This document shows positions 6,860-61,257 of a DNA stretch of 64,000 bases, in pieces. The first letter of the stretch is position 1; each line of letters starts with the position of its first letter. The stretch is from Candidatus Omnitrophota bacterium. Lineage in GTDB: Bacteria; Omnitrophota; Gorgyraeia; Zapsychrales; Zapsychraceae. The notes below the pieces were generated by a model. The model was not told the origin of the DNA. It did no database searches and worked only from the letters and a program-made list of their open reading frames with translations. A program made the position numbers and the translations under genes. The stretch spans positions 830,361-894,360 of the forward strand of contig JBFWOS010000001.1 in NCBI GenBank assembly GCA_050250375.1, in the 5' to 3' direction.

Positions 6860-8237
6860 ACACTCCTTTAATGGTCTCAATCTCCTGCAAACGTTTAAGC
6901 AAACTAAAAACATCATTCACACCGGGGCCTAAAAATAAAAACTGCCCTTTGACTATTTTCCCAGCTTCATTGGGGTTAAAATTAAAAGGTAAAATCCCCC
7001 CGGACATACCGGGCCGGAAAAGCAATTCCTGCCGGTCGAGAACATCCAGCAGATTATCCGTCTCATAAGAAGGATCGAAACGGATATTGCGCATAAGCCA
7101 GGCCCCCTTCGGCAAAAATGTCCTGGCCAAAATGGCCGGATAGGTAGCTCCGGTCACCCGGGCATTAATCTCACAGATTCTGACTTCTGTCCGTTTGTTA
7201 TGAACAATCACATGAAAATCGATGCTGCCGGTTCCGCGGTAACCCTGATCATATAACCACTGCCCGGCAACTGCAGCCTGGTCAAACAATTCCTGCCGGC
7301 AATCACAGCCTCCGGTAAGAAATACCGGTGGGGCCACATTCCCTTCGTGGATACTGTCCGGACTTAGAATCTGATCCGTCAGGTCATACAAATGAACTCT
7401 CTGCTCATCCACAAAAAGCTGAATACTGGGCGAACCAATATATCGCACCCCTTCAACCGTTTCATCCAGCCAGCCCTGGACAAGGACCTTACCTTCAAAA
7501 AGCAGATATTCCGGAATTGTTAAATCGTCAAATGGCTCATCCAGGGATAATTTCTGCATCCCGATTCCGGATGCCCCGATGGGGGCCTTAACAACAACAT
7601 GATGATACCCTTTAGCTTTAAAATCACGCATACATTTCTTAATGTCCGCCACAGAATCGGTTTCGTAAGAATCAAAAACATTAAATTTGGTTGTCTTCAA
7701 AAACTGATGAAGCAATAATTTGTTGTTTCCGTTCCGGCAGCCTTTTTTTGTCCCAACTGTTTTCTTCCCAAGCAGTTGTGCTAAGTTTACCAGCGCGTCA
7801 TCAACAATATAACCGTCCAGGCAATCAACATCTATCTGCCTGAGCCAATCAATTAACTCCTGGGATCTTCCTGAATAATGGTCTTTTTTCTCGGAGAATG
7901 TTTTATAAACATCAAACGGAACTACCCGAACCTGGGGCAAGGTCAGTTCAAGATCCTGCCTGAAATATTCGATTAATTGGTTATCCGGAGGGACTTCCAG
8001 AAGAAGGACATTTTTTTTGCCATGAAACATCAGATTGATCAGGGGAATAAGACGGCTACCGTAGGTTTCCAAAGCGCCGACTTCTTTTTTTAAGACCTCG
8101 GTCTCTGAAATATTTCCGTAGAACAACGACAGGATATTGGCAAAAAATGCTACGGACCGGTTCCAGAACGGCGGAATCTGACCCGGGATTTGATTGACTC
8201 CTTTAGACATTGTTCTTCCCTTCGCAAAAAGACACAT
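6846..8237 (-). CDS. ATP-grasp enzyme with an N-terminal pre-ATP-grasp-like domain (candidate peptide/amide ligase)
   Basis: C-terminal GTGSIDFHVIVHNKRTEVRICEINARVTGATYPA resembles ATP-grasp metal/ATP-binding loops, and KAPIGASGIGMQK resembles a P-loop-like segment. Overlaps the M20 gene by 14 nt. Confidence 0.55.
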   Translation of the reverse strand: MCLFAKGRTMSKGVNQIPGQIPPFWNRSVAFFANILSLFYGNISETEVLKKEVGALETYGSRLIPLINLMFHGKKNVLLLEVPPDNQLIEYFRQDLELTLPQVRVVPFDVYKTFSEKKDHYSGRSQELIDWLRQIDVDCLDGYIVDDALVNLAQLLGKKTVGTKKGCRNGNNKLLLHQFLKTTKFNVFDSYETDSVADIKKCMRDFKAKGYHHVVVKAPIGASGIGMQKLSLDEPFDDLTIPEYLLFEGKVLVQGWLDETVEGVRYIGSPSIQLFVDEQRVHLYDLTDQILSPDSIHEGNVAPPVFLTGGCDCRQELFDQAAVAGQWLYDQGYRGTGSIDFHVIVHNKRTEVRICEINARVTGATYPAILARTFLPKGAWLMRNIRFDPSYETDNLLDVLDRQELLFRPGMSGGILPFNFNPNEAGKIVKGQFLFLGPGVNDVFSLLKRLQEIETIKGVYDRD

Positions 8238-16420: not shown

Positions 16421-17383
16421 TTATTTTATTGTGGCTTTAATTTGATTAATTAAATTTTCTTTTAGTGCATCCCATTTATCGTTCTCCCAAACAATATGTG
16501 CATATTGACGAGTATCGAAATGCAATCTTTTTCGTTTGCCAGTGTTAGTATCAACGTCATCCATATGATCTTTCCGACACAATTTAACAACATCTAACCC
16601 CATTCCCATGGCATAGCCCGCTTCAAAGTAAGCCCCATTGTTTTGATCGGTAAAATCAGCGATAATGAACCGAGACTCTTTGATATCACTAATTATTTTA
16701 TGTGAAATATCATCATTATGCCTTTGATCAGATACTAAATTTGCTTCAAAACCACATTCATTACAAGCTTCTTTGATTGTACGGACCAATTCTTCTTGAT
16801 AATCAGTTCCGAATTGACACGCTATAAAAACTTTCTTACTCGAAACATTAATTTCTTTTAATCCCTCATATTTCTGCCAACCTGTCACCGTTGTACGACA
16901 CTTATACTTAGTCAAAGTTCCAACAGGGCCAGAATCAGTATTAAGCTCAATCCATTTTCTTTCTTGTAGATATTCTAATATGGTTTTAAGATCTCCTGGA
17001 GCACTCAAGTAAAAACGATATACATCATTATCGGTTAACTCAACTTTAGTTAAAACCTTAGGAGCGTTAGCATAAATAAATTTCAGAATGTGATTTGTTT
17101 TATCGGGGACCGATATTTTGGTGAACCGTGAAACAATGTCTGATATTTGTCCACACATTTGAGACGTTATACTTAACAAATTTCTATCTGAAGATATATT
17201 ACGTATGTATCCAGAGAACAAATGCAAATGATCTTGAGGAATTCTTTGAAAATTCGTATCTTCCAAAGCCTCCTGTGAAATTCGATAAAGACCACACATA
17301 GGGCATTCTACCTCGACAATATCACGAGATTTAATCTCTTCCCACCTTGTGGTTTCTTTATTGCAAAAATTGCAATTATCCAT
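16421..17383 (-). CDS. zinc-ribbon protein with C-terminal nucleoside 2-deoxyribosyltransferase-like (TIR/SLOG-superfamily) domain
   Basis: N-terminal CxxC...CPxC. The C-terminus KKVFIACQFG...RFIIADFTDQNNGAYFEAGYAMGMGLDVV resembles the NDT-family catalytic Glu loop. GC is much lower than the flanking genes. Confidence 0.5.
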   Translation of the reverse strand: MDNCNFCNKETTRWEEIKSRDIVEVECPMCGLYRISQEALEDTNFQRIPQDHLHLFSGYIRNISSDRNLLSITSQMCGQISDIVSRFTKISVPDKTNHILKFIYANAPKVLTKVELTDNDVYRFYLSAPGDLKTILEYLQERKWIELNTDSGPVGTLTKYKCRTTVTGWQKYEGLKEINVSSKKVFIACQFGTDYQEELVRTIKEACNECGFEANLVSDQRHNDDISHKIISDIKESRFIIADFTDQNNGAYFEAGYAMGMGLDVVKLCRKDHMDDVDTNTGKRKRLHFDTRQYAHIVWENDKWDALKENLINQIKATIK

Positions 17384-48681: not shown

Positions 48682-48776
48682 TTAGAATTTCCCTTCCGTT
48701 TGCCTTGCTATTATATGCACGGATTAATTTAATTCAAGGATCTGACAATTAAAGGAAAAATTCATAATCTAACGAC

Positions 48777-49265
48777 TCATTTATCTCTTTCCTTAATTTG
48801 TTCCGCCTTTGCCAGGACTTTCTGAGTCCAGTTCAAATCATCAGAATTGACAACAATGACATCGAAACCAAATCGGGCTCCATCGGAAATAAATGACTCC
48901 TGATCATCTACATGTAATTTAAAACCAAATTTTGAAGGATATTTGGAAGGCAATGGTATTTTCCGATTGCCAATCACCTCTCTTACATGAATGGGTTGAT
49001 TGACCACCTTCACTAAAGACACACCATAAAACTTAAAAAACCTTTTAACAGAACTTACCGAACGAAAAGAAGTTGTATAAATTGCAATTTGCCATCCCTG
49101 ATCCGTTAACCTCCGCATTAATTCAACTGTTCCCCGCCTTAATGGTTCTTTGTAAAAAAGACGCCAAATAAAGGGTACTCGAGTGGCTTCTTTGGGGACT
49201 TCACTATCTAAGCAGATCAAAGTGTCATCTAAATCAAAAGATATGATCATAGTTTTTTTATTCAA
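48777..49265 (-). CDS. HAD-superfamily hydrolase-like protein
   Basis: N-terminal DxDxT motif (ISFDLDDTL). Lower GC than the flanks. Confidence 0.45.
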   Translation of the reverse strand: MNKKTMIISFDLDDTLICLDSEVPKEATRVPFIWRLFYKEPLRRGTVELMRRLTDQGWQIAIYTTSFRSVSSVKRFFKFYGVSLVKVVNQPIHVREVIGNRKIPLPSKYPSKFGFKLHVDDQESFISDGARFGFDVIVVNSDDLNWTQKVLAKAEQIKERDK

Positions 49266-50427
49266 TTAGCCCTGACCGCTCCGGCGGCCAATAGATTTTA
49301 AAAACTTTACCCTTAACGTTTTCCTCTGGGACAAATCCCCAATAACGGCTGTCATGACTTTTAGCGCTATTGTCCCCTAGGACAAAATAATGTCCCGTCG
49401 GCACAGTGACAGGCCTCTGTCCGTAATATCCGTTAGCATAGTAGTCAATAGATTTTATCCTGGGATCCATAATCAACTCGCCGTTAATATAAATATCGTC
49501 ATTCTTTATCTCAACCTTTTCGCCCTCAAAGGCGATGAGTCGTTTTATAAAATCACGCCTCTTGTCTTCAGGATAAATAAATACGATTAAATCTCCGCGT
49601 TGCGGTGCCGATTCTTTATAAATCCTTTTATCTACCAATATTCTGTCGCCTACTAATAAAGTCGGCGACATTGATCCGGCTGGAATTTTATAGGCTTGCA
49701 CAATATTCTTTCTGACATACATTGTCACCGGAAGGCTAATAACCATCGGCATAATAAATGCAAACACAATCCCACAAATGAGAAACTTTTTGTTGTATCC
49801 AGCGAATCGGCTTTCGAGATCATGAAGTTGATTAAATTTTGTAGAAGAAAAATATGCATCAACAATTATATACAACCTAAACAAAAATAAAGAAACAAGC
49901 AGAGCAATCAAAAAAAGATTGGATTTGGTTTCAGGGAGAAAAATATAACCCGCCAGCGCATTGGAACAAACAACGCGGAGCACAAAAAACAGTATCCCTT
50001 TTTTAGGATACCCTGCATAGATTTGGCCCAACCCATCACAACAAAGACTTAAAATAATCGCCAATAAAGGTTCTTTTGGTTTTTGAACGATGCTTTTCTT
50101 CCAAGGTAAGAATCCCCAGATCTTTTCCCAGACTTGAAATGCATCACCCATCATCTCCAAACAAGCGGAGTCTTTTTCATCCCAGTTCACAAAGGTATAT
50201 TTTTTATTCTTATCGGATATTTTTTCTTCCAACAATCCATATAACTTCATTCCTACCGGTTTGATGGATTTGACTCTTGACACATTAAGGATCTTTACAG
50301 TGAATACTTTCTTGTTATAACCCCGGATGGTAATTTCAAGATACTTTCCTTTTTCACGGACTGAGATAATCGTCCCGTCGTGTATATCTTTCGGGCCGAC
50401 ATAATTTAAGTTTGGATTTTCCTGCAT
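49258..50427 (-). CDS. signal peptidase I catalytic domain fused to an about 115-aa N-terminal soluble domain and four TM helices
   Basis: SPase box B (IPAGSMSPTLLVGD), box D (FIKRLIAFEGE) and box E (VLGDNSAKSHDSRYWGFV). The N-terminal 250 aa, including four TM helices, is not a canonical LepB N-terminus. Confidence 0.65.
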   Translation of the reverse strand: MQENPNLNYVGPKDIHDGTIISVREKGKYLEITIRGYNKKVFTVKILNVSRVKSIKPVGMKLYGLLEEKISDKNKKYTFVNWDEKDSACLEMMGDAFQVWEKIWGFLPWKKSIVQKPKEPLLAIILSLCCDGLGQIYAGYPKKGILFFVLRVVCSNALAGYIFLPETKSNLFLIALLVSLFLFRLYIIVDAYFSSTKFNQLHDLESRFAGYNKKFLICGIVFAFIMPMVISLPVTMYVRKNIVQAYKIPAGSMSPTLLVGDRILVDKRIYKESAPQRGDLIVFIYPEDKRRDFIKRLIAFEGEKVEIKNDDIYINGELIMDPRIKSIDYYANGYYGQRPVTVPTGHYFVLGDNSAKSHDSRYWGFVPEENVKGKVFKIYWPPERSGLIE

Positions 50428-50437
50428 TGTTTTAACC

Positions 50438-51127
50438 TCAAGCCCAACTCAATCCATCAGGCAACGTGTAGTCGCTATACTCTAAATGAACAACTCGACG
50501 TTGAGCCGGTTTGTCCGCTTTGTTGGATGAATGAAGAACATGCGGGCGCATCAGGACCGCATCACCTCTTTCAACGATACAGGAAACGGAATCACGTTTA
50601 ACTTTCAGTTCATCAACTTGATTTTGAGTTAATATACCAAACTGATGTGATCTAGGAATTACCTTTAGACAACCGTTTGATTCATCGGCCGGGTCTAAAT
50701 GGATGCGGATCGTCACCATACGTTCCAGGACATTGATGTCCGGCTGGACATGTTGTACACCATCTTTGATGGTCCATGGCCCCCAGCCTGCTATGTCGGT
50801 TTGCCGGTCGACTGCGATCGTTTTGTCCTGATGCCATACAACACCCCAATTGGCCTCGCTTGTTTTATTAAAATAAATCGCCCTGACCATCTGGGGTTTT
50901 CCATTCAGCACCGTCTCAGCAAGGTCCAGAACTTTTGGGGAACGAGTCAAATGGTACACGGCCTTCACTTTTTTCTCCAAATTCCTTATACCGGAAACAG
51001 CGTCATTTCCTAAACACGATTTGATTTCTCTGCCAAGCAAATCCGCCTCGTCTTGATTCAAAAGATTCTTGAGAACAAAACATCCCTGTTCAACCAGATC
51101 CTTTTTTACGTTATTCTTCACGAGCAT
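50438..51127 (-). CDS. PhyH-family Fe(II)/2-oxoglutarate dioxygenase
   Basis: HxD...H iron triad (VVWHQDK... / RPHVLHSS) and overall PhyH-like length. Confidence 0.6.
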   Translation of the reverse strand: MLVKNNVKKDLVEQGCFVLKNLLNQDEADLLGREIKSCLGNDAVSGIRNLEKKVKAVYHLTRSPKVLDLAETVLNGKPQMVRAIYFNKTSEANWGVVWHQDKTIAVDRQTDIAGWGPWTIKDGVQHVQPDINVLERMVTIRIHLDPADESNGCLKVIPRSHQFGILTQNQVDELKVKRDSVSCIVERGDAVLMRPHVLHSSNKADKPAQRRVVHLEYSDYTLPDGLSWA

Positions 51128-51494
51128 TGGATATCCCTTTACCGTATTTCTTTAGAAACTCTTCTCTTATTTTTTTTGTTTTTTCTACATCTTCAATTTC
51201 TCTCGACATCGGTTCATCGGCCTGGTCTGTTTCGATAATCTTAATGACGATTTCATCCCCACACTTTAATTTTTGATGCTTGATCCAACGCAAATGTTCA
51301 TTCAACTTTTCACGATGTTGGGTTAATCCCCCAACAAAAATATCTATATTCACCTTATCTTTTACATAAACCGCGCCTTTTGATTCTTTGCCCAACGTTC
51401 CGACAGCTGATATTCCTGCATTTAGCCCCCCGAGGTCAGAACCGCCGGCAATAATCGGTTGATCATTATTCACTTGAACTTGAAGTGCAATCAT
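51111..51494 (-). CDS. small protein of unknown family, paralog 1 of a tandem pair
   Basis: Aligns over about 100 aa with the next ORF (I.AG..DL..L...S.....D....VGGL....EHL.WI.H..L...DE..I.I.E.D.AD.P). Confidence 0.5.
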   Translation of the reverse strand: MIALQVQVNNDQPIIAGGSDLGGLNAGISAVGTLGKESKGAVYVKDKVNIDIFVGGLTQHREKLNEHLRWIKHQKLKCGDEIVIKIIETDQADEPMSREIEDVEKTKKIREEFLKKYGKGISNAREE

Positions 51495-51825
51495 CTATTT
51501 GAGGCCTCCTCTTTTTGGGTAAATCCGCTTCATCCATTTCCAGAATTCTTATCTTTAGTTCGTCGTTTATATTTAATTCTCTATGCCCGATCCAATCCAG
51601 ATGTTCTCCCTGGTCACCATTCTGTGGCGCAGACAAACCCCCAACGTGTAGAAAAAAATCATCATTCTTTATTTTAGTAGGATGTATTTTCTTAAGATTG
51701 AAAGAACAGGACAAAATGCTACCTAAAACACACAAATCTTCTCTTCCGGCGATAACCAACCGTTCTCCATTTAATAGAATCTCAAATGCGATCATATCAC
51801 TCCCTAAATTTTTTTGATTCCCCAA
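51466..51825 (-). CDS. small protein of unknown family, paralog 2 of a tandem pair
   Basis: About 30% identical to paralog 1, with a divergent C-terminus ending ...CTSSSSE. Confidence 0.5.
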   Translation of the reverse strand: MGNQKNLGSDMIAFEILLNGERLVIAGREDLCVLGSILSCSFNLKKIHPTKIKNDDFFLHVGGLSAPQNGDQGEHLDWIGHRELNINDELKIRILEMDEADLPKKRRPQIDDCTSSSSE

Positions 51826-51880
51826 AATGCTTGATCAAGAACACTTCCTCACACTTCTATTTCTTGTTTTATTACTAATA

Positions 51881-52129
51881 TTATTTCGTATTACTCTTTT
51901 TTCTCAAATCTTTATTAAAGTAAACAATCGGAAGCAAAATCATCATGGTACCAAGGACAATGACGCTGATAACCGGATAAAGCGGCTGGCCTTTGAAATT
52001 GTCAACCGGTTCGCCGTATCTTCCTTGCATGATACTTGTCACTGCCCAAATAAAAGTCGGGATTGCGGCCAGCATGGTTAATATAAATCCTGCCCTGGAT
52101 AAGTATCTTCTATTCTTCTTAATACTCAT
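51881..52129 (-). CDS. small two-TM membrane protein, hypothetical
   Basis: 82 aa with two hydrophobic helices, at the head of the lower-GC operon. Confidence 0.4.
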   Translation of the reverse strand: MSIKKNRRYLSRAGFILTMLAAIPTFIWAVTSIMQGRYGEPVDNFKGQPLYPVISVIVLGTMMILLPIVYFNKDLRKKSNTK

Positions 52130-52248
52130 CAGCCTTCCCCATTAATCCACAAAAACAAACATTTTAGCGAAAAACATATTATAGATGGATTCTGGAAAAA
52201 TTGGTAGGCTGATTTGGCCGGAGGCCTGGTGAGAGGCCGTGATGGTTA

Positions 52249-52407
52249 TTAGGCCATCACGGTCTGGTTGGATGTTTTGAGGTTATATTTTCTGGACCGG
52301 TTGATGGCCCTGGTCCTGGCTTGCCGGAAATAAAGATAGGTTTCCCCGGCCAGTAAACCGCCGGTGAACCCGCCTGCCCCGCATACCATAATCAATAAAA
52401 TTGTCAT
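52249..52407 (-). CDS. 52-aa small protein (not in the supplied ORF track)
   Basis: ATG preceded by GGGAGGATCAC. Translates to MTILLIMVCGAGGFTGGLLAGETYLYFRQARTRAINRSRKYNLKTSNQTVMA, with a glycine-zipper-like TM segment. Confidence 0.3.
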   Translation of the reverse strand: MTILLIMVCGAGGFTGGLLAGETYLYFRQARTRAINRSRKYNLKTSNQTVMA

Positions 52408-57343: not shown

Positions 57344-58876
57344 TTATTTCGATTTTATTTTTAAGTTGAGCTGGTTCCCGGATATTTCCTCAAAGAACCG
57401 CTTGCGTTCCAGGAACGACGTCTTCTCCAGCGCCAGGCTGTCCTGTGCCAGGATGACCAGGTTGATTTCGCCCGGTTTGACAAATTCCACTTCAATCTTT
57501 TTTACTTTTTGTTTATGGGAGGCGTCCAGGGCATTGGCGATGCGCAGCAGCGATGTTAATTTCTGAACGAGGATCTGTTCGGTCGATGTCAGGTTCTGGT
57601 AATAATAATGTGAATTCTGCGGCGTGGCCTTGCGGTGATAACGGGCGATGCAGGCGATACACCGGATCTCATCAAATGTCAGGCGAAAAAGACTTAAGGA
57701 ATTAATGATATATTCCGTGTGTTTATGGTGTGAGCGGTTATTAATAAAAAGTCCGATATTGTGAAGATAGGCCGCCAGGTTTAAATAAAGCAGGTCCTTG
57801 TCTTCCAATCCCATGGACGGCTGAAACTGCTTGAACAATTCTTCTGAAAGCTGGGCGACGTGCCGGGTGTGTTTGATGTCCAGGTCAAATTTGTGGCACA
57901 AAAACTTGGCCACGGAAATGAGCTGATTTTCCTTATTATATTTCTGGGCCAGTTCCATCCCGAAAATGGTGTTGGCCAGCAAGGCCTCGGACAACGAGGT
58001 CTCCAGGATGTTGATCGTCCTTTTCTTCAACAGTTTGAACAGCTTGTTCAGGATGATCGCGTAGCCGTCAATCGAATCGGCCAACTCAATGGGAATGTCA
58101 TAAAAATCAGACAGGTCGTCCAGGTTCTTGCCCTGAATCCTTGAGATCAACTGATTGGACTCACGGAACTTGAATTGAAAAAAACTGGTCTGCCGGGTTT
58201 TATTCGGGAGGATCTTGTGCAGCGCCGCGGAATAACTTTCATCAATCAGGATAATATCATCAATCTTGATGTCCGGAAACGAGCGTTTGGTGTTGATGAT
58301 CTCGTTCTCGACATATTCTTCCAGGGCCTGATAAATTTCTTTTTTGGTGCCTTCGATACGGTTCCGGAACTGGGTCAAACGCAATGTACCCAGAGGCATC
58401 CCGAAACTGGCAACGGCAAAGCCTTTTTCCAGGACAGATATGTCCAGTGATCCCGCCCCGAGTTCCACGATCAGAAGATTCTTTTCATTGATGGGATAAC
58501 TTTTCTTCAGTTTGTAGGACAAAAACGCGTCGATGTAATAAACAACATCACCGACGTTCAGGACCTCGATCTCAAAACCTGTCATCCGTTTGACGGTATC
58601 GAGGAAGATGTCCCGGTTGAGGGCTTCGCGGACAGCAGTCGTCGCGATGATCTTGACTTTCTGGATTTCATACTGGGCGATGACGCTTTTATATTTATTG
58701 AGGACGCTGATGACATCATAAAAGATGTCCTGGGAGATTTTCCCCTTGTAGAAGGTACTTTTCCCGATCGCGTTGATATTCTTCAGGGTCTCCAGGATCG
58801 TAATTTCCTGGCCGACATCCTCACCGATGACCAGTTTGGTTGAATTTGACCCGATATCAATGACTGCTGCTCTCAT
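57344..58876 (-). CDS. ppx: exopolyphosphatase/guanosine pentaphosphate phosphohydrolase (Ppx/GppA)
   Basis: N-terminus AAVIDIGSNSTKLVI (ASKHA fold) plus a C-terminal HD-like domain. Confidence 0.85.
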   Translation of the reverse strand: MRAAVIDIGSNSTKLVIGEDVGQEITILETLKNINAIGKSTFYKGKISQDIFYDVISVLNKYKSVIAQYEIQKVKIIATTAVREALNRDIFLDTVKRMTGFEIEVLNVGDVVYYIDAFLSYKLKKSYPINEKNLLIVELGAGSLDISVLEKGFAVASFGMPLGTLRLTQFRNRIEGTKKEIYQALEEYVENEIINTKRSFPDIKIDDIILIDESYSAALHKILPNKTRQTSFFQFKFRESNQLISRIQGKNLDDLSDFYDIPIELADSIDGYAIILNKLFKLLKKRTINILETSLSEALLANTIFGMELAQKYNKENQLISVAKFLCHKFDLDIKHTRHVAQLSEELFKQFQPSMGLEDKDLLYLNLAAYLHNIGLFINNRSHHKHTEYIINSLSLFRLTFDEIRCIACIARYHRKATPQNSHYYYQNLTSTEQILVQKLTSLLRIANALDASHKQKVKKIEVEFVKPGEINLVILAQDSLALEKTSFLERKRFFEEISGNQLNLKIKSK

Positions 58877-59212
58877 ATCCCCCCGTCCTTTATAAGGATG
58901 ACATTATACTACATCTGCCGCCAAACTCAAATTATCCTTTCCACTCCTCTGCGTTAATGACATCTCGCCCAAAGACGGACACCAAAAAGGCATACAGTGC
59001 TTGTTCAAGCGGACTGTATACCAATTTAGAAGGGTAGGATCTTTGGCAGGAGTAAAGAAGAAATTTAATGCGGGTCTTATGGAAGGCTCCTATTAAACAA
59101 TGAGAAATTTTCATTTCTGATTGATCGTATTTTCCTTGATTTCCTAGTAATGTTATAGGCCGCTTGTGTTATTAATACGTGGCATCCTTGTGAACATTGG
59201 GAAAACTTTACA

Positions 59213-59258
59213 AAAAAAACCCGTTTTTCCTAGAAACGACAGAAAAACGGGTTTTATT
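59213..59258 (-). terminator. rho-independent terminator downstream of cspA (bidirectional in form)
   Basis: AAAAAAAACCCGUUUUUC...GAAAAACGGGUUUUAUUU: an 11 bp stem flanked by an A-tract and a T-tract. Confidence 0.6.
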
Positions 59259-59290
59259 TAACAAGATCTATAGATATCTAAATTGAACGA

Positions 59291-59491
59291 TTACAATTTG
59301 ACAACATCTTTTGCTTGTTCACCTTTTGGTCCGTTGGCAATCTCGAATTCAACTGCTTGCCCTTCTTCCAATGTTTTGAATCCATCACCTTGAATATCAC
59401 TGTGATGAACAAAAACATCCTTACCAGACTCCAGCGCGATAAATCCAAAACCTTTTTGATTGCTGAACCATTTTACTGTACCTTTAGCCAT
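59291..59491 (-). CDS. cspA: cold-shock protein (CspA family)
   Basis: [18 protein letters not shown] with RNP1 and RNP2 motifs; 66 aa. Confidence 0.9.
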
Positions 59492-59640
59492 TTAACTATA
59501 TCCTCCTTTCTTCGAAATATAGTAATGACGAGAGAAAATAGAAAAACCGCAAGGTCAATGTTCTCTAACCTTACGGTCTAGATCTTTTTCCTTTATCTCT
59601 TACTACTTATGGAAGAGTATGTACTATTTTCCAATATTTG

Positions 59641-61257
59641 TCAATTAAATTTTTTCTTGCCTTTATTTCGCTTGCGGCCGGAATCCTGTCCCTTCTGGGT
59701 CGCCTTCTGAACAAATTTTTTATTGCCTTTGTCAAGTTTGTTCAATGAATGCAGGACGATTTCGGCCTCGTTAAACGGAAGCGTGACAAATGAAAATTTA
59801 TCGAGCACCTGGACGTCACGGATGGCCCCCTGCGAGATGGCGCATTTCTTAATGATAATCTCAACCAATTTCTTTGGGGTCATCCCGTCGACTTTCCCGC
59901 TCTTGATAAACAAACGGGTTTTGCCTTTATGGTCAACCGGGGAGTCATTGATGTGCGAATAACTTTTTTCGTCCAGCGAATCCTGGAAGGAATATTCAAG
60001 CAACGCTGCCAGGACCGTTGACGGATCATTTTCTTCCAGCAGTTCCTGCGACATCGCCAGGTAATGCGGCTGCGGGGATGCCTGGATAATCTCGTTGATC
60101 TGGCTGATGATCCTGTTCTTCTTGGTCTTGATCAGGTCCCCCACCGTCGGCAGTTTGGCTTTTTTAATATCACTCTTAATGACGCGTTTGATAAACTGCA
60201 GCTTGCGGTATTCTTCAGAGGTGATGAACGTGATCGCGCTGCCTTCTTTCCCGGCCCGGCCGGTACGGCCTATGCGGTGTACGTACGACTCGGGGTCCTG
60301 CGGAAGTGAATAGTTGATGACATGCGTCAGGTTCTGGACATCAATACCCCTGGCGGCGACGTCGGTCGCCACCAAGACATTAATGACACCTTTCCTGAAA
60401 TTATTCAGGGTCTTTTCCCTGAGATTTTGCGAGATATCCCCGTGCAGACCGGAAGCGTCATACCCGCGTTCAATCAAATGGGAGGTGACCTGGTCCACGT
60501 CAATCTTGGTCCGGCAGAAAATCAGGCCGTAAAATTCTTCTTCGATATCAATGATCCGGCACAGGGCCTCGAATTTGTCGGAGGAAGAAACCTCAAAATA
60601 AATCTGCTCTGTCTGTGACGTCGTTAACTGGTCCTGGGTGATCTTGATAAACTCATATTCCTTCATGTATTTTTCAGCGATCTTTTTGATCGCGTTCGGC
60701 ATCGTCGCTGAAAACAGCAGGGTCTTCTTGTCTACATTTGTTTTCTCGATAATCTCCTGCACTTCTTCCTGAAACCCCATATTCAGCATTTCGTCCGCCT
60801 CATCCAGGACAAGATATTGGATTTGATCCAGCTTTAATGTCTTGCGGTTTAAATGGTCGATGATACGGCCCGGTGTCCCGACAACAATATCAACCCCTTT
60901 TTTCAGGCTGCGCAGCTGCAGGCCGATCGCCTGGCCGCCGTAAACGGGCACAATGGTGAATGCCCGGTTTCCCTTGAACGAACTGATCTCTTCGGTGACC
61001 TGGATGGCCAATTCCCGGGTCGGAGTCAAGACCAGGGCCTGCACCGTTTTGGACTTTCCCTTCAAATTTTCGAGAATCGGTAACCCGAATGCCGCTGTTT
61101 TCCCGGTCCCGGTCTGGGCCTGGGCGACCATGTCTTTCTGGCCGTTTAAAATGGCGGGAATCGCCTTTTGCTGGATCGGGGTCGGCACTTCAAACCCCCG
61201 GTCTTTTAATATTTTTAATGTTTCTTTGGATAAACCCAATTCAGTAAAATCATTCAT
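59641..61257 (-). CDS. deaD: DEAD-box ATP-dependent RNA helicase (DeaD/CsdA-like with C-terminal RNA-binding extension)
   Basis: Q motif, AQTGTGKT, DEAD, SAT and HRIGRTGR motifs, and a C-terminal DbpA-like/basic tail. Confidence 0.9.
   Translation of the reverse strand: MNDFTELGLSKETLKILKDRGFEVPTPIQQKAIPAILNGQKDMVAQAQTGTGKTAAFGLPILENLKGKSKTVQALVLTPTRELAIQVTEEISSFKGNRAFTIVPVYGGQAIGLQLRSLKKGVDIVVGTPGRIIDHLNRKTLKLDQIQYLVLDEADEMLNMGFQEEVQEIIEKTNVDKKTLLFSATMPNAIKKIAEKYMKEYEFIKITQDQLTTSQTEQIYFEVSSSDKFEALCRIIDIEEEFYGLIFCRTKIDVDQVTSHLIERGYDASGLHGDISQNLREKTLNNFRKGVINVLVATDVAARGIDVQNLTHVINYSLPQDPESYVHRIGRTGRAGKEGSAITFITSEEYRKLQFIKRVIKSDIKKAKLPTVGDLIKTKKNRIISQINEIIQASPQPHYLAMSQELLEENDPSTVLAALLEYSFQDSLDEKSYSHINDSPVDHKGKTRLFIKSGKVDGMTPKKLVEIIIKKCAISQGAIRDVQVLDKFSFVTLPFNEAEIVLHSLNKLDKGNKKFVQKATQKGQDSGRKRNKGKKKFN

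Follow-up and report, generated by a model that had tools for sequence, protein, structure and literature searches.

We analyzed a group of six open reading frames (ORFs), designated A to F, which lie in one orientation in a slot upstream of the tfoX gene within a 64-kb stretch of an Omnitrophota genome. This stretch, at its full length, is referred to below as the window, and all coordinates are given on its scale. The six ORFs were found on the minus strand, spanning positions 52129 to 48777, where a preliminary description of this DNA had located them. The genes, together with the promoter-like stretches that border them, are listed in Table 1.

Table 1. The six genes of the locus and the promoter-like stretches at its edges (window coordinates).
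Feature	Position	Strand	Description
Promoter-like stretch, 5′ of A	52177..52234	(-)	ends in a TATAAT box; blastn match to contig L041
Gene A	51881..52129	(-)	82 amino acids (aa), two predicted transmembrane segments, no family match
Gene B	51466..51795	(-)	109 aa, unnamed all-beta domain family, paralogue of C, without C-terminal helix
Gene C	51111..51494	(-)	127 aa, B/C family, seven predicted strands and a C-terminal helix
Gene D	50438..51127	(-)	229 aa, PhyH-type Fe(II)/2-oxoglutarate dioxygenase
Gene E	49258..50427	(-)	389 aa, S26 type I signal peptidase, N-terminal extension
Gene F	48777..49250	(-)	157 aa, HAD-like phosphatase motifs
tfoX promoter-like stretch (TTGAAT, 16 nucleotides, TATAAT)	48689..48750	(-)	downstream islet edge; blastn match to L041

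The genes are closely packed, and it had been proposed that each of them overlaps the next by 8-29 nucleotides (nt). This is correct for the B/C and C/D junctions (overlaps of 29 and 17 nt, respectively), whereas A and B are separated by an 85-nt gap and D and E by a 10-nt gap. At the E/F junction the result depends on the start codon of F: if F begins with the ATG at 49250, so that residues 6-10 form the DxDxT motif, the two genes lie 7 nt apart, and only a TTG start (49265; F of 162 aa) produces an 8-nt overlap. For gene B, the ATG at 51795 was chosen instead of an upstream TTG (giving a protein of 109 aa, not 119), because all members of the family begin with MIA(L/F)(E/Q). The NCBI gene calls used for comparison are those of the matching locus in a metagenome-assembled genome of Candidatus Omnitrophota (GCA_050181705.1, contig JBFXCX010000003.1). 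In that annotation E starts at an internal GTG and has 341 aa, i.e. it is 48 residues shorter. We preferred the ATG start (389 aa), since it is preceded by a GAGG Shine-Dalgarno sequence and thus by the better ribosome-binding site. Shine-Dalgarno-like sequences precede each of the genes A, B, C and E.

Scans for promoters and terminators yielded no more matches than expected from shuffled sequences. The promoter-like site of tfoX was located at 48737-48710. Directly upstream of the promoter-like stretch of A there is a hairpin with a 12-bp stem (52234-52265), which closes the preceding unit. The NCBI annotation alone calls a 52-aa ORF at 52249-52407 (-), and the hairpin spans the stop codon of this ORF. 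The arrangement of the genes suggests that A-F are probably co-transcribed from one promoter upstream of A, and that B, C and D may be translationally coupled.

The nucleotide composition of the region differs from that of its surroundings. The G+C content (GC) of the region is 0.395, compared with 0.466 in the remaining window, which agrees with the earlier remark that it falls below that of the flanks. At third codon positions (GC3) the values for the six genes range from 0.32 to 0.45, against a window mean of 0.55 (standard deviation 0.09) and values of 0.6-0.73 for the flanking genes. The codon bias of the concatenated six-gene block, calculated relative to the other 56 genes of the window, was B = 0.390, while 52 equal-sized blocks of consecutive window genes gave 0.171 +/- 0.027 with a maximum of 0.237. 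By GC, GC3 and codon usage alike the block is therefore clearly foreign, and the horizontal acquisition that had been suggested for it fits these data. At the flanks we detected neither direct repeats nor att-like sites, only short repeats at chance level; the Pfam scan revealed no recombinase among the six genes, and neither Rfam matches nor tRNA genes were detected in the window. An integron cassette was also weighed as an explanation and rejected, since the ORFs overlap and attC sites could not be accommodated between them.

The comparison with a related sequence revealed that the group can be broken into parts. A metagenome contig of 1195 bp (L041) carries the PhyH protein closest to D (P0004; 86% amino acid identity), and blastn analysis identified three colinear matches between this contig and the window. 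L041 267-327 matches the promoter-like stretch of A (window 52234-52177; 77% over 61 nt, E = 3.5e-5), which in L041 is placed directly upstream of the PhyH gene. The PhyH gene itself (L041 402-1077) matches window 51116-50444 with 87% nucleotide identity. The third match (L041 1129-1190), whose start lies 45 nt downstream of the stop codon of PhyH, corresponds to the tfoX promoter stretch (window 48750-48689; 78% over 63 nt, E = 2.9e-6). The two flanking matches fall exactly at the edges of the six-gene islet. Between these anchors L041 contains approx. 75 nt and approx. 45 nt, compared with 1.06 kb (A-B-C) and 1.69 kb (E-F) in the window, and no trace of C or E was detected in any frame of L041. 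The presence in L041 of a PhyH gene between both flanks, without A-B-C and E-F, indicates that the latter are separable from D. The similarity to L041 starts at 52234, just 3′ of the 52-aa ORF, which defines the upstream edge of the variable slot. The additional genes may have been gained in the lineage of the window or lost in that of L041; an ancestral order of A, a small gene (X) and PhyH, with subsequent loss in L041, is plausible in view of a further locus (L004), described below.

The assignment of D as a PhyH-type Fe(II)/2-oxoglutarate (2OG) dioxygenase was confirmed (Pfam PhyH, 54.7 bits versus a cutoff of 22). Both the HxD...H iron ligands and the 2OG-binding arginine are present: among 31 orthologues H99, D101 and R210 are invariant and H199 is conserved in at least 90%. 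The orthogroup, whose members are approx. 221 aa long, includes 694 homologues, typically 45-56% identical (e.g. from Pseudoalteromonas, Hahella and Spartinivicinus), and has a mean column identity of 54% from Omnitrophota to Gammaproteobacteria. The nearest solved or characterized relatives of D are AviO1, PhyH, MysH and leucine hydroxylase, all of them distant and all of them enzymes acting on small molecules, for which reason D most likely hydroxylates a small molecule. The genes of the orthogroup were found in about ten unrelated contexts (including L005, L006, L039, L040, L043, L044 and L045-48), and no B/C or S26 gene was present nearby at any of these about ten PhyH loci. The strong conservation of this uncharacterized orthogroup, whose genes change their context singly, suggests an activity that is self-sufficient and selectable, for example the modification of a common small molecule.

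The products of genes B and C are indeed paralogues, as had been recognized (35% identity, BLASTP E = 9e-16), although their sizes are 109 and 127 aa and not 120 aa each. Searches of Pfam, NCBIfam, PADLOC and PHROG gave no match to either protein, nor was there a sequence match in the PDB. An exhaustive HMMER search nevertheless assigned 1173 representative clusters to their family at E <= 1e-3, and 306 at E <= 1e-10; the family size of over 1,100 refers to clusters at 50% identity, with which B and C can be aligned along approx. 100 residues. The predicted structure of C is a seven-strand globular all-beta domain (predicted local distance difference test score, pLDDT, of 89.8), and this fold has no match in the PDB. 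The conserved positions of the family are mainly glycines, together with N9, D20, W70 and D80, a pattern that looks like that of a binding scaffold more than that of an enzyme. The first approx. 100 residues of B and C are conserved and their C-terminal tails differ, as the preliminary description had stated. The tails, however, represent ordinary family variation, with no hypervariable core: many relatives end in a helix that carries a recurring E.FE.AK..Y..L+.KYE-like motif, a version of which is present in C and missing from B. No conserved stretch of 7-10 columns was found in an alignment of 62 sequences of the family.

Both proteins begin directly in a beta strand, and inspection revealed no signal-peptide-like N-terminus and no leader-like region. 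Type I signal peptidases of the S26A type need a Sec or Tat signal peptide on their substrate, and in the absence of such an N-terminus B and C would be poor substrates for an enzyme of this kind. Several relatives (L007 8001-8657; P0133, P0137, P0273 and P0274) are fusions of two tandem copies of the domain, 218-229 aa in length. They mirror the adjacent B and C, which suggests that the functional unit is a pseudo-dimer; by analogy with these fused forms, B and C probably pair as a heterodimeric binding protein. The large size and wide distribution of a family for which no Pfam model exists merit a DUF entry and a structure. One member was identified in a cultured bacterium, on plasmid 2 of Variovorax sp. 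SRS16 (L042; NZ_LR594667.1, 271775-272170), within an array of hypothetical genes on one strand, among them one for a DMP19-like protein, and could be a tractable representative of the family.

The gene neighbourhoods of approx. 30 B/C-family loci were inspected, on metagenome contigs (L001, L007-L014 and L016-L038) and on the Variovorax megaplasmid. When searched by tblastn with all six proteins of the window, these loci contained no PhyH, S26, HAD-like or A homologue. The same search of all fetched loci detected D only in loci fetched with D, B/C only in those fetched with B/C, and A only in L004. Many members of the B/C family are solitary; in one lineage the gene stands alone between a thiolase gene and an opposite-strand TPR-GAF-GGDEF gene. 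The other contexts included pheST, a transposase, a group II intron reverse transcriptase, a PIN/HicB pair and arrays of unknown small ORFs. An all-against-all BLAST comparison of 120 neighbour proteins of B/C genes revealed no partner common to separate lineages. In a clustering of approx. 15 billion proteins at 90% identity each of the six proteins of the window was alone in its cluster, except that E and F shared theirs with start-codon variants of themselves.

Some of these contexts could be read as those of a conflict or immunity islet, in which B/C, DUF6968 proteins and the like would be orphan immunity-like or anti-effector proteins held in variable arrays, with the enzymes as co-resident accessories. 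Such a reading would account for the recurrence of both B/C and PhyH genes in same-strand arrays of small family-less genes (L016, L014, L039 with a DUF6966 gene, L040, and the Variovorax megaplasmid with its DMP19-like gene), and for copies that adjoin transposase, group II intron reverse transcriptase, ArdA/HsdR or PIN/HicB genes; tandem paralogues and a foreign composition also fit it. We nevertheless consider it highly unlikely. No toxin, secretion-system or defence gene occurs in or beside the cluster, the solitary B/C homologue mentioned above is stably inherited between housekeeping-type genes, and the immunity role of the small proteins is one that we ourselves infer. A defence function had also been raised as an alternative at the outset, and at a threshold of E <= 0.1 none of the six proteins matched a PADLOC family (2023 database). 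Likewise, the PHROG scan of the six was uninformative, no viral-contig relatives were detected with B/C, E and F, and a literature search retrieved no papers on DUF6968, or on PhyH enzymes associated with immunity proteins and polymorphic toxins.

Three genes of the group remain to be described. Protein A matches no family in Pfam or NCBIfam, and its two hydrophobic segments (residues 12-34 and 47-73) agree with its earlier description as a small membrane protein. A tblastn search of plasmids with A gave no match, and scans of viral contigs with B/C, E and F were equally negative.

Protein E contains a complete S26 peptidase domain (Peptidase_S26, PF10502; 154.9 bits versus a cutoff of 22.9, E = 2.4e-45; residues 224-380, i.e. 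49758-49288), is recognized by TIGR02227 (156.9 bits, cutoff 47) and resembles the solved structures of E. coli LepB and SpsB (E about 1e-24 for LepB). It carries the motifs GSMSPT (251-256), KRLIA (295-299), GDNS (351-354) and SRYWG (360-364), which, by reference to E. coli LepB, we take to be the S26A catalytic boxes with the Ser/Lys dyad. Four hydrophobic segments were predicted between residues 121 and 239 (50067-49711), and the first 118 residues (50427-50074) match no family; E is thus, as had been proposed, a signal peptidase I with an additional, unusual N-terminal part (a stretch of approx. 118 aa), followed by four hydrophobic segments. A relationship between this N-terminal stretch and B/C was rejected (hhalign probability of 0.3%). 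The single-sequence AlphaFold2 model of E was unusable (pLDDT 40.7). Close-relative scans with E and F in the genome, viral and plasmid collections revealed no relative of the same architecture, the plasmids having been searched by tblastn with the N-terminal half of E. Accessory S26A paralogues such as SipW and the plasmid-borne Sip peptidases are known, and E is most likely an additional signal peptidase acting on a substrate of its own.

The first hydrophobic segment of E (residues 121-146; 49990-50067) contains a GLGQIYAGYPK motif, with a weak TM2-like Pfam match (E = 0.085). The sole match to E in the genome contigs, at the level of this motif, is a GLGQIYAG sequence near the C-terminus of a 294-aa Runella protein (L015 8275-9159) which is not an S26 peptidase. 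GLGQIYAGYPK may represent a recurring membrane-hairpin module.

F is HAD-like, as had been described, by motifs only: DLDDT (6-10), IYTTS (57-61) and HVDDQ (113-117) are present, in what would be the register of the HAD motifs. No family model, however, was matched above its threshold (PF00702, HAD: 20.8 versus 26.4; PF08645, PNK3P: 18.5 versus 22; TIGR01664, DNA 3′-phosphatase: 19.4 versus 107.65), and there was no sequence match in the PDB. F is most likely a small HAD-like phosphatase, as judged from these motifs.

The preliminary description had interpreted the six genes as a cassette for the modification and export of a peptide or protein, similar to those for ribosomally synthesized and post-translationally modified peptides (RiPPs) or to an effector cassette: D would hydroxylate B and/or C, E would cleave the product at the membrane, and F and A would assist. 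The tight same-strand packing, the duplicated small proteins with differing C-terminal tails and an extra membrane peptidase beside an oxygenase are what such a cassette would be expected to contain. It had been made to depend on conservation of the block across genomes, and the gene set turned out not to be co-conserved, whether in L041, at the approx. 30 B/C loci (a family that is mostly solitary) or in the about ten PhyH contexts. A dedicated modification and export system is for this reason not supported. The proposed precursors argue against it as well: B and C are confidently folded domains of approx. 100 aa which lack a leader and a variable core, the tail of C is a helical motif recurrent in the family, and neither N-terminus, by inspection, has the signal peptide that a type I signal peptidase requires. 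Moreover, Pfam and NCBIfam identified only PhyH, S26 and a weak HAD match, and no class-defining maturase or recognition domain (RRE, YcaO, radical SAM or LanM), and the characterized enzymes nearest to D act on small molecules. In the light of these results we regard a RiPP-like function as extremely unlikely. The accompanying statement that no described system has this gene set was upheld, with PADLOC, PHROGs and NCBIfam giving single-domain matches at most.

Part of the gene order was found a second time. Contig L004 (GC 0.36) encodes a 79-aa homologue of A, followed by a 100-aa DUF6968 gene and then by a PhyH protein 67% identical to D. The A homologue (ORF at 7479-7718) is 31% identical to A (tblastn E = 4e-10 over 7479-7688; global alignment z about 12 against 2000 shuffles), has two predicted transmembrane segments and was not called in the source annotation. 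It shares an ATGA overlap with the DUF6968 gene, which in turn overlaps the PhyH gene by 17 nt, the same length as the C/D overlap of the window. The order of A, a small soluble protein and PhyH thus occurs twice, with the middle gene exchanged; it is a single case and represents the best remaining hint of a functional link. Two further features of L004 were noted. The 79-aa ORF also overlaps the stop codon of an upstream, repeat-rich ORF of 429 aa (Sel1-like by eye), and further downstream there are genes for ArdA, an HTH_17 protein and the type I restriction subunit HsdR, which gives this region the appearance of a mobile island.

On the basis of this recurrence, A, X and PhyH could constitute a genuine three-part module, in which A and a soluble X (B/C in the window, DUF6968 in L004) might tether the dioxygenase to the membrane, supply its substrate or regulate it, with E and F as unrelated passengers. 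The conserved order and overlap length, and in the window the overlapping B, C and D behind one promoter, speak for this possibility. L004 is, however, the sole other instance, and the more closely related PhyH gene of L041 has neither A nor X behind the matching promoter stretch. In addition, tblastn detected no A homologue in about eight further PhyH contexts, X is not homologous between the two loci (a relationship of B/C with DUF6968 was rejected, at an hhalign probability of 0.1%), and the approx. 30 B/C loci have no PhyH gene. A genuine module of this kind consequently seems rather unlikely. We consider distinctly unlikely its extended form, in which the dioxygenase would belong to an undescribed module at the membrane and have a small soluble partner that can be exchanged, and in which B/C, founding a large unnamed family with a fold unseen in solved structures, would act as heterodimeric partner or substrate carrier.

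The explanation that we favour, and hold to be probable, is that the six genes form a mosaic accessory islet, i.e. accessory genes of foreign composition which are separable from one another and are lined up in one orientation in the slot upstream of tfoX in this Omnitrophota genome. D would be a lone dioxygenase from a conserved orthogroup which moves between distant bacteria as a single gene, and would have sat behind its own promoter near tfoX. A-B-C, i.e. a protein with two transmembrane segments and two copies of a widespread cytoplasmic all-beta domain, would have been placed between this promoter and D, and E-F, an extra signal peptidase and a small HAD-like phosphatase, between D and the tfoX promoter. 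All six genes would then probably be transcribed from the one promoter that precedes A, each product most likely acting on its own substrate, independently of the others.

Several points weigh against this mosaic explanation. L041 is only 1195 bp long, and it was equated with this locus on the strength of two short flanking matches (61 and 63 nt), whose E-values refer to the 64-kb window. The more sensitive word-index and exhaustive searches covered B/C and D; homologues of A, E and F were sought only with close-relative tools and in the plasmid and viral collections, and distant E-F or A-D pairs may therefore be missed. As the genes are tightly packed (they overlap by 29 and 17 nt at two junctions and lie 7-10 nt apart at two others) and have only one plausible promoter, they are probably co-expressed, and a local functional link is possible. 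Finally, the recurrence in L004 of A, a small protein and PhyH, with the identical 17-nt overlap, indicates that A and D may be linked.

As a system, the group is of minor importance, being probably an ordinary mosaic of acquired genes and not a new modification or export machine. The interest that is left lies in the unnamed, widespread B/C family which this ordinary kind of islet carries, and in the possible trio of A, X and PhyH; the B/C family and the conserved PhyH orthogroup are by-products of modest value.

Other parts of the window also contain genes worthy of mention. A 320-aa ORF at 16421-17383 (-), with a GC of 0.343 and a GC3 of 0.265, is the strongest codon outlier among the background genes of the window (B = 0.65); its sole family match, to nucleoside 2-deoxyribosyltransferase, is sub-threshold, and it is probably another foreign gene. 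Between 52509 and 58876 (-) there is a polyphosphate-related run, composed of a Ppx/GppA-HD protein, polyphosphate kinase 1 and a metallophosphatase fused to Ppx domain III/HD, after which comes a ROK-family sugar kinase of 456 aa, whose C-terminal extension resembles DUF498 with a sub-cutoff score. These genes may form a polyphosphate-linked sugar kinase cluster. The adjacent region (58876-59641), flanked by the ppx gene and a gene for a DEAD-box helicase, has a low GC (0.36-0.41), and in the annotation of the matching locus it contains a gene for a 66-aa cold-shock-domain protein.

The individual products can be compared with well-known enzymes. D shares with the PhyH-family dioxygenases (phytanoyl-CoA hydroxylase, AviO1, MysH and leucine hydroxylase) the Pfam PhyH match, the HxD...H motif and the conserved arginine; it differs from them in belonging to a short (approx. 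221 aa) orthogroup without a characterized member, and its profile similarity to the solved enzymes is at E = 1e-8 or weaker. E resembles the type I signal peptidases (LepB/Sip, MEROPS S26A) in its full S26 domain, scoring above the cutoffs, in the Ser/Lys motifs and in the transmembrane segment directly before the domain. In contrast to these peptidases, E has in addition the N-terminal stretch of approx. 118 aa and three extra hydrophobic segments with the GLGQIYAG motif.

At the level of the whole locus, the similarity to RiPP biosynthetic gene clusters consists of small ORFs placed beside an oxygenase and a peptidase, and of tight packing. Unlike such clusters, the locus contains neither a leader/core precursor nor a class-defining maturase, its genes are not co-conserved, and its supposed precursors are folded domain proteins. 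A further parallel is offered by genomic islets that were acquired horizontally and occupy variable slots between genes, with which the locus shares a GC, GC3 and codon usage unlike those of the host, a presence/absence pattern relative to a related sequence, and unrelated accessory cargo in one orientation. It differs from such islets in that searches for an integrase, a tRNA, direct repeats at the flanks and attC-like sites were all negative, and in that its cargo appears to have been layered around a pre-existing PhyH gene, instead of having arrived as one block.

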